Source of the DNA: a virus
Taxonomy: Duplodnaviria; Caudoviricetes
Length of the DNA stretch: 64,000 nt
Direction: 5' to 3' (one strand)
IMG/VR virus record: IMGVR_UViG_3300032038_000028
Location: 32,001 to 96,000 of that record
Below the pieces are notes generated by a model, which did no database searches, was not told the origin of the DNA, and worked only from the letters and a program-made list of their open reading frames with translations. Numbering within the stretch: the stretch's first letter is position 1; each line of letters begins with the position of its first letter. A program made the translations under genes and the position numbers. This document shows positions 9,540-52,971 of this stretch, in pieces.

Positions 9540-9590
9540 TTTGCATAAAAATGAGGTATCACATGGGCGTTATTTGCATAAAAATGCAGT
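9540..9590. promoter_or_regulatory. Paired ARG-box-like sites next to attP
   Basis: TTTGCATAAAAATG occurs at 9540 and 9573, 33 bp apart. The second copy, ttTGCATaaaaATGCAgt, fits WNTGNATWWWWATNCANW. Confidence 0.55.
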
Positions 9591-41024: not shown

Positions 41025-44000
41025 ATGATACCTTCCTTTCGTAGACAGTTGTCTACCTTTTGTGCATTAAAAAAGAACCGTTTACGGTTCCTGTTTGAGC
41101 CACGCTTCGATGGCGGATTGCGAATCGAACGTCATCGACTCGCCGGTCTCGGTGTTCTTGAAGAGGTAGGCCGTTTGCCGATGTCGTCCGACTGGCCGGG
41201 CCCGGAAGACCAGAACCCAGCCGCGCTTCAGCATTCGCTTTTCCAGGCGGAGCAGATGCTCCGGGTATTTATTGATTTCCATGGCTGTTCTCCTTCCGTC
41301 AGAAGCTCCGCGCCAGTGTTCCGTCCGGGTTGGTCAGGTAGCAGTACAGCCCATCCCGCAGGTTGTACCCGGCGACCTGAATGATGTGGTCTTCGTGGAT
41401 CCGCACCACGTTGATTCCCTTGACTCCCTTCAGCACGCCGCGATTCACGGCCGGGATCTGATTCCGCTTGGCGTAGATGCGCTTCGGGGGCTTGCTCAGT
41501 CCGGTGATGCCGGGCTTAAAGAGCTCGATCGCAATCATTTGGATTCTCCTTCCCACCACGGTTTCTCTTTCCGTCCACGCCAGCATCCATGTGCCGGGCA
41601 CCAGTCACAGCGCTCGTCATGCCCTTCATCAGCGGCATCCCAGTGGCAGAGCGTGCAGAGCATCGTCTTCCGTCCACAGGTGGGGCAGGTGACGGCATAG
41701 GTTTCCATGTCGTCGTCATCAATTACAATTGGGATATCGGTATCGCATTCCGGGCAGTACTCTCCGAAGTCGTAACCGGTTTCCTGTTCCGTTTTAACGT
41801 GGGTCATACGACGCTCCCTTCCGCCGTGAACGAGATCGTAACTTCCCCGCTCAGATCCGGCATGTCATAGAACAGACTGTTGGTTCCGCTGACCACTGCT
41901 CTGGTGTGGTTCTCGTTTACAGACATTCCGGTACGGAGCCACATGGCGTGGGTCAAAGCTTCAAACGCGTTCCGGGTGGCAGATGCAAAAGCTTCCTGTC
42001 CGCCGCCGATGTCTTCGACGACGTACTGCTCCACCATGGGGGAGTAAACATGGTCGCCGTTTTCAAAGTGCAGGACGGATCCCACCTGACCAAGGTCGCG
42101 CCGAATTCGGATTCCGGTTGTGGCGCCGTTGTCAACCATGAGTACCATTACAGCTCACCTTCTTCCAGCTCGAGCCCGTTCTTCTGCAGGATGGCGTTCA
42201 CCAGCATGGGCAGATTCTGATCCACCATGCGCTCGGCTTCCTGTTCCGCTTTGGCAGACTTGCGGGCGACTTCCTTCAGGAGAAGCTTGGTGCCGCTGAA
42301 GGCAACGAAACCTTCCATCATGACGCCGTTGCCGCAGGAGCGTCGTTCCACCGGGACGACCGTCAGATAGTAGCCGCGCCGCTCGTTCTTGTAGGTGAAC
42401 AGGTTCATGCCGCCAAGGCTGTAGGACATATCCACTTTCAGGTGGGTTGTGGTTCCGGCGTTGGGTTTCACTTTCAGATAACGTTTCATGGTTTACTCTC
42501 CTTCCATTTCTGCGTCCGCTCTGGCGATGATGTCTTCCAGATAGTAGCCGACCAGCTCCCCGAACAGAGTGCCGGCGGGTTCTGATTCCTGTGCAAGATT
42601 GATGATCGTATGGGCGGTGACTTCGGGAATGTGAGTCCACGTTTCATCGACCGCCTTGGCGATCGCGTTCATAAAGCAGTAGCACCAGTCGGGATTGCTC
42701 AGGCGGGATTTCATGTCGGGCATAGTTTATTCTCCTTCCTTCACGGGCTTCTTGCTGATGATGACGGTTGCGACGTCCTCGAGCCAGCCTTCCATCACAT
42801 CGAAGGTGCCGTCCGCTACATTTTGCTCGATGGCCTTGATGGCGGCGTCGTCGGTGCGTGCCCGGTGGCACATCCGATTAACCCAAGTTTCGCGCCGTTC
42901 CACTTCATATTCGTACATCGGTTCTTCTTCCACTTCATACTGGTCGATTATGCCGTACTTGTCATAGATGTACAGTCCGCCTTTATCGCAATCAATGCGG
43001 ATGTCGGTAATGGTTACCTTTCCGGTGGCACTGATTACGTAACGCTGAGCACTCAGGATGTGAAAATTTGCGCGCCGTTTCCCAGACATCACCCAGCTGT
43101 GCATAACTTTGAGATCTTCTATGTCCGACCAAAGGACCGGCTTTCCGCCGTAGGTCACAACGAGAACATATTTGATGTCGCTTTCCATTATTACTTCTCC
43201 TTCCGTCAATGGTCGAATTCCGGGAACCATCCTTCCCAGACAACGTTTTTGCAGATGTCTCCGAAGCGGAAGTGCTCGCCCGGTTCCCATCCGAAGTACC
43301 AGACGCGCTCTCCGTGCCAGTAGATCTCGGTGACGTCATCGTTCGTGCAGTCATCGAAGGCAATGATTTTGGAAACGTCGGTGAAAAACCGATCCGCTGA
43401 GACGTTGCTCGAGTATCCGTGAACGGTGACGATCCGCTCATCGGAGTCCGCGGTATCATGTTCCACTGCAAACAGGTTCAGCTTGGCGCCGATGCTTCTC
43501 ATGTTGGGTTCTCCTTCCGTCAGTAGATCCACAGGGCTTGCTCGAAGGTCTGCCCGTCCACTGTGACGTTAATGAGCCAGTCACCTTCCGCCGGGCGAAC
43601 GTATTCGTTGAGCCAGATTTCGGCGTCCGCTACGACGTGATGGATGCCGCTGCGGAATCCGATGAACCATGCCAGTGCGGCGACCAGCAGGACGGCGATC
43701 AGTTTTTTCATGCGTCATTCTCCTTCCATTCCAGCTTGTACACCCGGTGGGCGGTCGCTTCGGTGTCTACGATCCAGTACCGGCGAATGATTTTCGTTTC
43801 CCGATCCGGCGACACACTGGTCAACTGGGTCGGCAGGTAGCCGGCGTAGGTATAGCCGTACTCGGTGCGCTCCGTTCCGCCGAGATTCCGGAAGAACGGG
43901 ATGGCGTCGAAGATGTTGTGGTAGAATTCGTAGGAGATTTTGCGCACCGTTTCTGAGTCCGGCTTGGTCTTCCAGCTCTTGCCGGAAGTCGTGCGGGAGA

Positions 44001-44120
44001 AGCGCTGTTCCTTTTCCACTATGACGGCGTTCTCCAAATAGCTGCGGTTCATGCGAATGTTGCGGGTGGGATCAGACATAATTTACCTTCCTTTCTGGCT
44101 CCGTTGAGCCTGTACAATGT

Positions 44121-44180
44121 AGCCTGTCTCGTCAGTAACGGGCGGCCATTCCCGTCAGACCGCCCGAAGGCGGTTTCGAC
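44121..44180 (-). ncRNA. Type II hammerhead ribozyme HH1
   Basis: GUC-GAAA-CCGCC(UUCG)GGCGG-UC^UGACGGG(AAUGGCCG)CCCGUUA-CUGACGA-GAC-AGGCU. The catalytic core, three stems and a loop-I/3'-tail pseudoknot are all present. Confidence 0.9.
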
Positions 44181-44886
44181 AATTCGATTTCCTTTCCGGT
44201 TCCGTTTACCTTATGCGGTCTGCTCGGCGGCTTCGGCAGCCTTCTTCGCTTCCCGTTCCGCCCACCACCGTTCCGAGGCGATACGTTCCTGCTCGCGCCG
44301 CTCGGCATTCTCGTTCAAAATCTTTTCCTGTTCCGCGGGAGACACTTCGCCGACCAGCTTGTACACGTACAGCGTGTAGGCATCCTTGCCATTCTGCTGT
44401 TCCTCGTCCCACTCGTAACGGCGGGACGCCTTAATAATCTTATCGGGGGCCTTTTGGCCTGGTTTATACTGGTAACGTTTTATCAATTCGGGTTCCAGCG
44501 CGTAGTCGTCGAAGCTCTTGACGTGGCTCTGTTCGCACTCATAGCAGAGATCGTAGTCTTCGTAGGTCTGGCCGCAGTGGTCGCACACATACAGATTTTT
44601 CATTTTGATTTCCTTTCTGGTTCCGATGAACCTTAGTCCAGATCGTCCAATGTGAGAATGCCCATAGCCCAGAAGAGCTTCCAGAAGGTTTCCGAATTGG
44701 TTCTGATTCCGTTGGGCAGATGGATGTCGCAAACGGTGCTCCGCTGACGGTGCGAGCAATATTTGCTGTTCCGCGTGGTATATAGGGGTGTGATCTGATT
44801 CCCCTTGACGTAGGCGTAAAGCATGATTCGATTTCCTTTCCGGTTCCGTTGAACCTTTTGGGATCGTTTCGGGTTCCGTTTACCTA

Positions 44887-44925
44887 TGTGTATAATATGC
44901 AAGATTGTGTGTATAATTATGCATT
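44887..44925. promoter_or_regulatory. Tandem ARG-box-like sites
   Basis: tgTGtATaatATgCAag at 44887 (one nt short) and tgTGtATaattATgCAtt at 44908, 21 bp start to start. Confidence 0.55.
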
Positions 44926-45605
44926 TTGGAATCGATTCGGGTTCCGTTGAACCTTATGCAAGCTGTTCAGCTGCTTCCCGTTTCGCCCAAACGTGGTCTT
45001 GTGCATCGTAAACCTTGTTCCGCTGGTGCCACTTCAGGCGGTTGTCTCCGGCGTCCAGATCCACTGTGTAGGATCCGTCGTTGAAATCCACGAGCCGTCC
45101 GCCGACGAAATCGCCAGCGTCAGCCCAGACCTGATTCCCGTTCCGCATATAGAACTTAATGACTTCATCGCCGGATATGATGGTTACGTCCACCTTGACG
45201 ACGTCTTCGATCTTGACGCAATCCAGATAATGACGGTCGTTCCGATAATCCATTACGCATGCCAGTCCGTTGTGCTTTCCTTTGTAGGTGCTCATGATCC
45301 TATCTCCTTTCTGGTTCCGTTGAACCTATCAGAAAACCCGCATGTAAGGCTGTTCCGGTTCCGAGAGCTGAAGGTAGCAAGCAAGCTGACGCTTGACATA
45401 GAAATTCTCTTCCTCGTTGATCTTACCAACGATGAAGAGAATCAATTCCGATTCCAGTATATGCCCCTGCTTCCATTGGGCGATCTTCTCACGGATTTCT
45501 GCCTCTGCCAGAGCAAAGCGGGCGTTAGCATTCCGTTCCATCGTTTCTGTAATCTTCATTGTTATCTCCTTTCTGGTTCTGTTATGAACCTGTGCATAAA
45601 AATAC

Positions 45606-45665
45606 AGCCTGTCTCATCAGTAGCGGTAGGCTGGTTCCGCCAGACCGCCCGAAGGCGGTTTCGAC
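45606..45665 (-). ncRNA. Type II hammerhead ribozyme HH2
   Basis: GUC-GAAA-CCGCC(UUCG)GGCGG-UC^UGGCGG(AACCAGCCUA)CCGCUA-CUGAUGA-GAC-AGGCU. Loop AGCCU pairs with the 3' AGGCU, and stem I covaries with HH1. Confidence 0.92.
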
Positions 45666-46991
45666 TTCCATCAGCGGCGAGCGTCCCAATCGAAAAGGTA
45701 GCTGGTTCCGGTGGCCACTGCGACAAATTTGATGTGTCCGTCATTCGGAGCGTCGAAATGGACGAAGCTTTCCGCTTCCGCATAGGTCATTTCTTTTGTG
45801 GTGCTGGTTCCGTTCCAAGTCATGATCGTTACATTGCACTTTAAGTTTGCCATAGTGATACCTTCCTTTCTGTCGTTGAGTTATGAAAACCGGTTTCGAT
45901 TCCGGTTCCGCTCTTAATAAAAACGCCGTCCAGAGCGGGCGGCGAGCTTGCGAATGTTCCGTTTGAATTGTTTTGCCTGCCAGCGTTCGGCGCGTTCCTG
46001 CTGGATTCTGTCTCCGTCGAAGACGGCGTGCAGGAAATGCTGTTCCTTCACAAACTCGATGATGCAGGCTATCAGGTAGGCCAAGCAGAGGAGGGCAAAG
46101 GGGATAGCTGCAATGAGCCAGTTGGGCGGGAGCATAAGCATTTTCCTTTCTGATTCCGATATGGATTCTGGTTCCATCATCGCCTCTTGCGGCGATTTTT
46201 GGCATAAAAAAACCGCCCGAAGGCGGTTGGGTGCGGAAGCTGGGTTATTCGTAACAGTTGAAATACTCGAAATACAGGGTTACATACTGGTCATGCCGCT
46301 CGACGCGCACGCCGTCGGGGTGAATCGGCTCCTGAGCTGGAGCATCGTTAGACAGTACATCGTCAAAGCAGTCGCCCAAGTCGATGTCAGCAGACTCGGC
46401 TATGATGTTGATCTCCAAGATTTCGACGCCGTAATAGGCACGGGTCGTGTCAGTGGCTTTGTAGTGCTTTGCAACGACGTCATGGCGTTCGCTGACCTCG
46501 GGCTTGCCCATGGCCAAATTCATCACCTGCTGCCACTTGGCGGCAAACGACACTTCGTCAGGGAAATCGCCTTCAACAGGCGTCACGTTGTCGATGGTAC
46601 AGTTGAATTCTTCGTTGATATGCCTGCACAGACAGTCGATCTGTGTCAGCCTGCTTTCGACAGGTCTGGTCTTCGGTGGTAACTGCTCAGCGTCGTCAGT
46701 CTGCCGCCCTTTGTGCTTGAGCACATCGGCCCAACTGTCGATCACTGCCTGCGGAGCGCCCGCCATTTGCAGGGCACCAAGTTTCAGGTACACCTCAGAT
46801 GCGGGCGTTGTCTTAAAATCATCTCCTTCAAAATATCGTTGTGCGGCGTCAGGATCGCGCCACAGGTTGTAAAAGTGATAAGGGTCTTCATTGAACATTT
46901 TTCGGAACTCTTCTTTTTGCTCATCAGTCAGCTCAGAAGGGTCAAGGTCGTCAAGATATAGCATGCAGGTTATCACGCTCCCTTCGCTCAG

Positions 46992-47020
46992 AGTATAAAC
47001 GTTGTGACATGCGCTGTCAA
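46992..47020 (-). promoter_or_regulatory. Sigma-A promoter
   Basis: TTGACA-17 bp-TATACT upstream of 46245-46976. Confidence 0.75.
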
Positions 47021-48138: not shown

Positions 48139-49246
48139 AGTGTACCTCCATGGCGCCAGTGGCGCAGTTTTTTAGCTCGGGCCGTCATCATTGCAGGCGG
48201 CGCGAACAGGGAGGCCCGGCCGATCGAAATCAGCAGGGCCTGAGGAAGTACTATATGCGCACGGCCGAAGCCGAGAATTTCGCATGGTTTAACACTTATG
48301 CCAGTTACTATGCGTATCGCCCACAAGCCGCTCCCAGATACTAAGAGCCAGTAACAGACAGGAGAGATGACAAACCTGCCCCATCGCGGACGATTCGCCA
48401 GTGCGCTGACACTTGGCGAGTAACGGCAACTTCGGTATGGTGCCACTACCAGATTGTACCCCCGTACTACACGAGCAGTCTGTACAGGTAGGCTGACCGC
48501 TTCACAGCGGACCACAGACGACCCCGCGCAAAAAATGCGACAGTTTCCCGTCTGCGATGCTCATGCCGCCCAGCCGCTATGCGACCGCGCGACACGAGCG
48601 CGAAACCCGCGCCGCGACCGCCGCGCCAACCGCGACCGCCGCGCGCTTTATTATCGCGCTCACAATGGACGGGAACGAGACCGAGAAAAAGTATGAACAA
48701 ACTGTGAACAAATTATGAACGAGAAAAAGAGTGAAAACGCGACCGCGACCGCCGCGCGGATACGCTGACGGTTGGAAAAGTAACACTTTCGTAACATGAT
48801 TTTTGATTTTTGATCAGAAAAGCGGGGAAATACTCACGCATAAAAAAAAGCCCGTCTTAAAATCGAGATGAAAATGCCTGTGAAATGAGGCGTTTTAACA
48901 TATGAACAGGCGCTCAGACTTAAAATCGACCAGATACGACAAAAAGAGCGAAAAAACGCCGAAAAACAGGCATTTTCCGGGCTATTTTTGATCAGGAAAC
49001 GCCATTTTCCCCGCCGTCAGAGGAAAAACGGTATAAATGTTACAAAAATGTAATAATTATATACAGAAAATGGATAAAAATACATATAAAACGGCAGTTT
49101 ATACATTGATATACATTGAAATTGTATAAAAAAATCTCAAAAAAATAGAGAAAATCGTCTGATCAGGCAGGAGAATTTCACTTTTTGTCGAATATGTATA
49201 GTGTAATTCAATACACCACACCACTACATGAAGGAGGAAACACACC

Positions 49247-52545: not shown

Positions 52546-52829
52546 ATCCATGTCAGCAGGGGCGCGGTTTCGGCCGCGTTCTTTTTGTGCACAAAGAAAA
52601 TGACCCGCGCAACATATCCGCCCTCATCGGGCTGCGCGAGCCATCTTCCTGTGGTTGTTCACCCAGACCATCTTGCAGATCCCTCAGCGCGGCGATCCCG
52701 TCCCTCGGGGCGGGCGAACGCTGTTGCGGTTGTTGCCGCTGCGTGCCTTCGCCGGGCACCACGGTTGGATATGCGCACCGCTTCTATGAGATGGCACTTC
52801 AGAGCACAGGCTGGCACAATACCCAAATT

Positions 52830-52971
52830 CATGCCGTGGCGGAACAGGTAGACGCGCAGAGGCCAGGAGACAGGGGCAGGTTTAAACACCAACGGTGAGC
52901 TCCTATGGGTTCGACTCCCTCCGATGCGGGCAGTGCACGGCCCATGCAGGGTGCAGATCCCTGCCGGCATG
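52830..52971 (+). ncRNA. tRNA-Leu-like RNA with a 90-nt insert
   Basis: Acceptor CATGCCG/CGGCATG, D arm TGGCGGAACAGGTAGACGC, T arm GCAGGG-TGCAGAT-CCCTGC; no canonical anticodon arm. Confidence 0.65.

Follow-up and report, generated by a model that had tools for sequence, protein, structure and literature searches.

Two type II hammerhead ribozymes, designated HH-A and HH-B, lie on the minus strand of an uncultured phage genome of ~113 kb, where they bracket four small genes of an operon. The DNA analysed (64,000 nt, referred to below as the window) comprises bases 32001-96000 of the 112,852-bp IMG/VR record IMGVR_UViG_3300032038_000028, which is rated complete by CheckV. HH-A and HH-B are genuine hammerheads of this type, as seen in their identity, integrity, position, conservation and variable presence among relatives. 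They are probably active, cleaving the operon RNA co-transcriptionally in a processing or insulating role, and probably form portable modules.

A search with the Rfam model for type II hammerheads (RF02276, Hammerhead_II, clan CL00010) matched both elements over their full length. HH-B scored 49 bits (E = 5e-7 for the whole window), against a gathering threshold of 37 bits. HH-A scored 33.9 bits (E = 0.005 for the window and 7e-4 for 10 kb) and fell below that threshold; the shortfall is due to its 10-nt loop I, which counts as an insertion in the Rfam model, and its core and stems are intact. With our own covariance model, R1, HH-A reached 77 bits, a score that is not independent because HH-A is part of the R1 seed. 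No further hammerheads were found in the 112,852-bp genome.

The catalytic core, taken as C3-U4-G5-A6-N7-G8-A9, G12-A13-A14 and a cleavage triplet ending in H17, is complete in both copies (CUGAUGA, GAAA and GUC in HH-A; CUGACGA, GAAA and GUC in HH-B). The core-adjacent pairs 10.1-11.1, 1.1-2.1 and 15.1-16.1 are G-C, U-A and A-U in both, and both copies thereby pass the acceptance rule of Perreault et al. (2011; PMC3088659, Methods), namely standard pairs next to the core in the three stems. Full-length alignment to the structure line of the model showed type II topology in both cases, with stems I and III closed by loops and stem II open. Stem III (ACCGCC-UUCG-GGCGGU) is the same in the two ribozymes. 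Stem I is UGGCGG/CCGCUA in HH-A and UGACGGG/CCCGUUA in HH-B, fully paired in each and including one G-C to A-U swap. Loop I and the 3' tail form a pseudoknot of six contiguous pairs in HH-A and five in HH-B, four being the minimum accepted. These results bear out the initial annotation, which had described two complete minus-strand hammerheads with an identical UUCG-capped stem III, a differing but fully paired stem I and a loop I/3'-tail pseudoknot in each. For neither ribozyme did thermodynamic folding in context recover the three-way junction, and the z-scores were unremarkable. As a missed junction is expected with a 3-bp stem II and a pseudoknot, the folding was weighed neither for nor against the assignment.

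The position of the two ribozymes relative to the neighbouring genes (Table 1) was also as annotated, that is, after a stop codon and before the next ribosome-binding site. HH-A begins 4 nt past the stop codon at 45671-45673 and HH-B 29 nt past that at 44211-44213; downstream of each are a hairpin, a AGAAAGGA Shine-Dalgarno (SD) sequence and an ATG, the last at 43 nt from HH-A and 38 nt from HH-B. All genes around the ribozymes are on the minus strand, the hammerheads are co-oriented with the SD-bearing open reading frames (ORFs), and independent gene calls on two relatives (L128 and L131) gave the same strand and the same ORFs. The two predicted cuts fall where they had been placed before and are 1485 nt apart. 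A consensus scan found no minus-strand terminator between 46211 and 43000, so that double cleavage of a read-through transcript would release a 1485-nt RNA with four ORFs. This part of the earlier proposal is plausible, whereas its extension to a circular mRNA is unsupported, as discussed below.

The intervals between the genes carry a junction repeat of ~41 nt, present in eight copies in 44073-45591 compared with 0.13 pattern matches expected by chance. In the repeat unit a 5-bp hairpin, GGUUC-AACG-GAACC, precedes AGAAAGGA. A compensatory change (GGCUC...GAGCC) is seen in one copy, and no gene follows three of the copies. Of these orphans, that at 44182-44213 is letter-identical over 24 nt to the junction before gF. 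In the predicted folds, stem I and the junction hairpins (GGUUC..GAACC, GGCUC..GAGCC) are kept and AGAAAGGA is unpaired in most. Exact copies of the repeat were absent from IMG/VR, and two were found in JGI metagenomes. The palindrome TGYAT-W4-ATRCA is over-represented in the window, with four copies (9575-9588, 44910-44923, 45593-45606 and 49071-49084) against 0.15 expected; the copy at 45593-45606 overlaps the last 4 nt of HH-A, and that at 44910-44923 lies inside the cassette.

The layout seen at this locus is shared by a widespread subclass of hammerheads. An exact pattern for the subclass, AGUCGAAAC ... CUGAUGAGACAG, matched at least 119 IMG/VR contigs and 82 stretches in species genomes from many bacterial phyla. 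A covariance model was built from 13 copies and then used on viral contigs, where it identified 237 full-length hammerheads in 122 IMG/VR contigs. Two or more were present in 60 contigs and four or more in 14, with a maximum of 10. Strands were never mixed within any of the 122 contigs, the hammerheads always being co-oriented, and the median spacing was 388 nt, about one small gene. The stop codon of the upstream ORF lay within -3 to +5 nt of the 5' edge of the ribozyme in 194 of 228 cases, a proximity to which the AG required there by the search pattern contributes in part, and an SD and a start codon followed downstream in 207 of 226, with a median gap of 17 nt. The usual order in the subclass is therefore stop codon, ribozyme, SD, start codon. 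Among 126 distinct relatives, 97.6% of the stem cells pair and compensatory changes occur in 14 of the 15 pairs. The pseudoknot covaries as well, with a mean of 5.2 pairs compared to 3.6 when the tails were permuted among ribozymes.

The genes behind these ribozymes are small and highly diverse (median 86 aa; 167 clusters among 194 proteins). The few that could be named encode ArdA, ArdC, DUF932, anti-repressors, NinX, SSB and a Mu-type transposase; ArdA, ArdC, DUF932, the anti-repressors and SSB suggest that the arrays hold accessory genes of an early or anti-defence kind. Whether ribozymes move with the downstream or with the upstream gene was examined among the 237 copies: similar ribozymes sharing only the downstream gene (23 pairs) were 86% identical and those sharing only the upstream gene (96 pairs) 88% identical, a comparison confounded by ORFs truncated at contig ends. 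Very dense arrays were also observed: the genome of a methanotrophic gill symbiont of Bathymodiolus japonicus has six exact matches to the pattern within 2.8 kb (L211:1-2850; NZ_BLYC01000024.1), L048 has ten hammerheads in ~3.4 kb, and L021 and L022 are further examples.

The proximity of stop codon and ribozyme raises the question of regulated cleavage, in which folding would compete with ribosomes ending the upstream ORF, with an alternative fold of HH-B or with a bound factor, and cutting of the operon RNA would be confined to certain conditions. As the stop usually overlaps the first ribozyme nucleotides in the subclass, a terminating ribosome would cover the 5' strand of stem II. The minimum free energy fold of HH-B in full context favours an alternative in which the 3' strands of stems III and I pair with each other, and the palindromic box, with its four copies in the window, abuts HH-A. 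Regulated cleavage of phage hammerheads was also raised by Perreault et al. (PMC3088659). However, the stops in the window lie 4 and 29 nt upstream and do not overlap the ribozymes, the box is an operator-type DNA palindrome with no evident RNA ligand site, and neither ribozyme has an aptamer-like extension. Moreover, full-consensus hammerheads with the pseudoknot are fast in vitro (PMC3088659). Regulated cleavage is thus improbable here.

Conservation and rearrangement of the two ribozymes were seen in syntenic contigs reached through homologues of the 130-aa gG. Contig L131 is 94.7% identical to the window over 1590 nt and contains both ribozymes and the same four genes, and gC, HH-A and gD are present in L130; HH-A and gD occur together in all of L130-L132. 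In contrast, L128 (94-96% identical) passes directly from gC to gE and lacks a 348-nt block made up of HH-A, its leader and gD. The joint lies in a GGAA common with the junction repeat, and the boundary is at the first nucleotide of HH-A. L131 and L132, which come from different assemblies, both begin exactly at that base, which fits a polymorphic breakpoint there. HH-A in L130, L131 and L132 shows a single change, G-C to G-U, which keeps the pair. HH-B is letter-identical in L131 and L216, with flanking DNA that is 87-95% identical. In L216 (positions 60-970; ODAI012827581.1) the order is gG, gF, HH-B and a gene for 193 aa, compared to gF, gG, HH-B and gH in the window, and this permuted order around a 100% identical HH-B implies that cassettes are reshuffled at the junction repeats. 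As judged from these alignments, the ribozymes appear to be conserved as sequences and portable as modules within the reshuffled array.

Such findings could also be expected if the ribozymes were mainly passengers or recombination joints, supplying homology at the DNA level for cassette swaps, with cleavage tolerated and not selected. The HH-A/gD indel between close relatives, the contig starts at the first base of HH-A, the unchanged HH-B beside different genes, the geneless orphan repeats and the diversity of the genes behind subclass hammerheads are all consistent with this explanation. However, homology requires neither an intact core, nor compensatory stems, nor a covarying pseudoknot, and all three are maintained in the subclass. 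Homology is already supplied by the junction repeats alone, and the tight spacing of stop, ribozyme, SD and start points to a function at the RNA level. We therefore consider it unlikely that recombination is the main role, although somewhat less so than regulated cleavage.

The more distant syntenic contigs L126 and L127 contain no hammerhead. Together with the sub-threshold Rfam score of HH-A, this could indicate that one or both elements are inactive relics. Against this, all core positions and closing pairs are intact, the low score of HH-A stems from the treatment of its loop I, and in relatives both elements have changed less than the DNA around them, so that there is very little likelihood of either being a relic.

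In L127 the slot between gG and gH, which is the position of HH-B in the window, is occupied by a conserved non-coding element of ~115-130 nt, named element X, which lies between junction repeats (L126:3770-3900, L127:6448-6578 and L128:762-892). In L126 and L128 an extra element of ~120 nt is present in the equivalent of the long junction at 44825-44956. RNAalifold gave 34 pairs and one compensatory change for element X. It had no Rfam match, and no more copies were found in 214 loci, IMG/VR or JGI metagenomes. Element X is thus a candidate for an uncatalogued structured RNA in a ribozyme-equivalent position. A blastn search of 43000-47000 against 50,697 GenBank phages gave no match; in IMG/VR no relatives of gD were found and gH had one distant relative without a hammerhead. 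No prophage relatives were found through a GP88-like protein in 185,579 species genomes.

Under the favoured reading, each ribozyme would fold during transcription, first at stem III and next at stem I, after which the pseudoknot would lock the active shape. Cuts after the GUC of both ribozymes would split the polycistronic RNA into three pieces. Each upstream piece would end with the UUCG-capped stem III carrying a 2',3'-cyclic phosphate, and each downstream piece would have a 5'-OH at its start, immediately adjoining the stem I hairpin, behind which come another small hairpin and the SD. Because stem II is the open stem, closed hairpins would flank both new ends, and it appears that, among hammerhead topologies, only type II would leave a closed hairpin at both. 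In this way each piece could become independent of the upstream sequence in its stability and translation, while ribozymes would be gained, lost or relocated by recombination at the repeated hairpin-SD junctions. We infer cleavage in vivo, protection of the ends and an effect on expression for HH-A and HH-B from this architecture. Processing or insulation, which the initial annotation had suggested in part as insulation of the next gene, is the standard published hypothesis (PMC3088659; PMC6765202) and fits the hairpin and SD behind each ribozyme, the in vivo effect itself being inferred. The purpose of bacterial and phage hammerheads was still listed as undefined in a 2019 review (PMC6765202), and the present locus does not settle it.

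The closest published counterparts are the clusters described by Perreault et al. (2011; PMC3088659), in which multiple hammerheads flank single genes or short gene blocks in prophages (Clostridium scindens, Azorhizobium caulinodans and the ardA locus of Agrobacterium tumefaciens). Those clustered ribozymes cleave in vitro and, when expressed in Escherichia coli, in vivo, and processing of long phage transcripts was proposed for them. The window shares with them the type II ribozyme with its loop I/3'-tail pseudoknot, the bracketing, in phage DNA, of single genes or short gene blocks of variable identity by co-oriented ribozymes, and the suggested role in processing long phage transcripts. It differs in having an extra local hairpin between ribozyme and SD, which places its start-codon gaps of 43 and 38 nt at the long end of the subclass. 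A further difference is that comparison of near relatives here reveals present/absent and relocated modules.

Another useful comparison is RiboJ, reportedly an insulator engineered by Lou and colleagues in 2012, in which a hammerhead and a hairpin precede the ribosome-binding site. The same order of hammerhead, short hairpin, exposed SD and gene is found at both ribozymes in the window, and by analogy cleavage would give the gene a fixed 5' leader regardless of the upstream sequence. Unlike RiboJ, the phage elements are natural, of type II and not derived from the satellite RNA of tobacco ringspot virus (sTRSV), and located within an operon and not after a promoter; the hairpin and SD also precede genes that lack a ribozyme. 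By this analogy, HH-A and HH-B are putative insulators. In DNA-level organization the array is similar to the PeSL cassettes of T4-type phages (PMC2839356; PMC4122927), since short repeated motifs between genes mark the places where close relatives differ by indels or replacements of small accessory genes. However, PeSL elements combine an early promoter with a terminator stem-loop, whereas the repeats here consist of a 5-bp hairpin and an SD and contain no consensus promoter, and some slots hold a ribozyme.

A circular product was considered in view of viroids and retrozymes (PMC7229834), in which two hammerhead cuts likewise free a unit with 5'-OH and cyclic-phosphate ends that RtcB can join. 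On this view, the ends of the 1485-nt fragment would be joined by an RtcB-type ligase of the host or by reversal of the hammerhead cleavage, giving an mRNA that is circular and translatable. The chemistry of the ends as RtcB substrates is established and, because stems II and III are common to both ribozymes, the ligated junction would recreate a complete chimeric HH-B/HH-A hammerhead. In the putative host order (that containing a Christensenella metagenome-assembled genome) the distribution of RtcB is patchy, 10 of the 41 genomes sampled having it. A search of the phage genome found no rtcB, and the fragment ends are bridged only by the 3-bp stem II; a ligase encoded by the phage and the extended end pairing of viroid- or retrozyme-type circular RNA are thus both missing, and ligation would depend on a possible host RtcB. 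Viroid and retrozyme units are also tandem or rolling-circle repeats, mostly non-coding and of type I or III with extensive end pairing, whereas the unit here is a single-copy, four-gene mRNA segment bounded by type II ribozymes. Perreault et al. (PMC3088659) sought circular or spliced products of clustered prophage hammerheads and found none, and the units between successive ribozymes of other arrays each consist of one small gene, differ in length and show nothing suggestive of a circle. The circular mRNA raised by the initial annotation is consequently the least probable of the explanations considered, and we give it hardly any weight.

Several observations weigh against active processing. 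Beyond the Rfam score of HH-A, the absence of hammerheads from L126 and L127 indicates that the operon as such can do without them. The competing fold of HH-B could, according to the folding model, slow its cleavage. A strong terminator (46211-46228) sits between the sole consensus promoter and the array, so that transcription of the ribozymes needs read-through or an unrecognized promoter. In Bacillus, RNase J1 degrades RNA with a 5'-OH, as in the glmS precedent, and a 5'-OH alone is therefore no guarantee of stabilization. Finally, cleavage by these particular copies, from a phage not in culture, is predicted from their sequence.

The operon contains about 17 small accessory genes on the minus strand and occupies roughly the interval between 47.0 and 41.07 kb of the window. 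In the order of transcription it comprises a promoter, a gene for 243 aa, a terminator, two small genes, HH-A, four genes, HH-B and about ten tightly packed small genes (Table 1). No usable indication of function was obtained from Pfam, PHROGs or the ESM Atlas for the four cassette ORFs and their neighbours; gG has a weak ZZ-finger match (E = 0.013) and eight unnamed homologues with 35-93% identity. The hairpin at 41069-41090 is the probable end of the operon, as read from its sequence.

The hairpin of the terminator at 46211-46228 matches stem III of HH-A and HH-B without a difference over 17 nt (family D8), and the sequence past it resembles the 3' flank of HH-A (family D14). The likeness may point to a common origin, or the very stable UUCG hairpin may have come into use here by chance. 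A second terminator-like hairpin with a U run, which surfaced through a spurious Ysr49 alignment, is present on the minus strand at 45920-45950, at the 3' end of an ORF for a 75-aa membrane protein (46141-45914), so that attenuation may act twice on the part of the array upstream of HH-A. Neither inspection by eye nor the consensus scan revealed a convincing -35/-10 pair in the AT-rich junction at 44880-44930, and an internal promoter there was rejected. Elsewhere in the window, a sub-threshold match to the Rfam FuFi-1 RNA (RF02986) was observed at 52597-52838 on the minus strand (43.8 bits compared to a cut-off of 59.6 bits; E = 3.6e-6).

Table 1 Features of the ribozyme-bearing operon, listed in the direction of transcription (window coordinates)
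Feature	Position	Strand	Basis and remarks
Sigma-70-like promoter, TTGACA-17-TATACT	46992-47020	minus	Consensus scan, 11/12 matches; sole strong upstream candidate on this strand
Intrinsic terminator after the 243-aa gene	46211-46228	minus	Consensus scan; strong
gC, 60-aa ORF	45671-45853	minus	Ends 4 nt before HH-A; homologue called in L128 and L130
HH-A, type II hammerhead	45603-45666	minus	RF02276 full-length match; predicted cut 45643/45642
HH-A leader	45567-45602	minus	Palindromic box, hairpin GGUUC-AUAACA-GAACC, SD
gD, 76-aa ORF	45329-45559	minus	First gene past HH-A; gained or lost together with HH-A
Junction hairpin and SD before gE	45300-45329	minus	Repeat search and folding
gE, 113-aa ORF	44954-45295	minus	No family match; called in L128 and L131
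Long junction inside the cassette	44825-44956	minus	Three repeat copies (two without SD), AT-rich segment, palindrome 44910-44923
gF, 63-aa ORF	44633-44824	minus	No usable family match; after gG, not before it, in L216
Junction hairpin and SD before gG	44606-44635	minus	Repeat search and folding
gG, 130-aa ORF	44211-44603	minus	N-terminal CxxC...CxxC zinc-ribbon-like motif
Orphan junction repeat, SD without gene	44182-44213	minus	Directly 5' of HH-B; family D2
HH-B, type II hammerhead	44118-44181	minus	RF02276 full-length match; predicted cut 44158/44157
Junction hairpin GGCUC-AACG-GAGCC and SD	44089-44113	minus	HH-B/gH interval; compensatory U-A to C-G relative to other copies
gH, 123-aa ORF	43708-44079	minus	First gene past HH-B; phrog_16226, E = 1.8e-12, function unknown
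Terminator-like hairpin GAACCG-UAAA-CGGUUC and U run	41069-41090	minus	Read from sequence, outside the range of the consensus scan

The initial annotation had regarded the pair of hammerheads embedded in a gene array as the unusual part of this locus. That view does not hold, because prophage clusters were published and assayed in 2011 (PMC3088659) and arrays of 2-10 hammerheads are common in IMG/VR; the locus is a good but ordinary example of an arrangement described for prophages in that work and very common in phage DNA. Its value lies in the contrasts that it offers. The window, L130 and L131, with HH-A and gD, and L128, without them, form a natural near-isogenic contrast, and HH-B beside different genes in the window and in L216 provides a second one. 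In addition, the closed hairpins predicted at both new RNA ends would provide a simple rationale for the type II topology found here. The layout of the subclass, now quantified, with a stop codon abutting the ribozyme and an SD and start codon ~17 nt later, argues that the ribozymes define mRNA ends rather than occupying random spacer positions.

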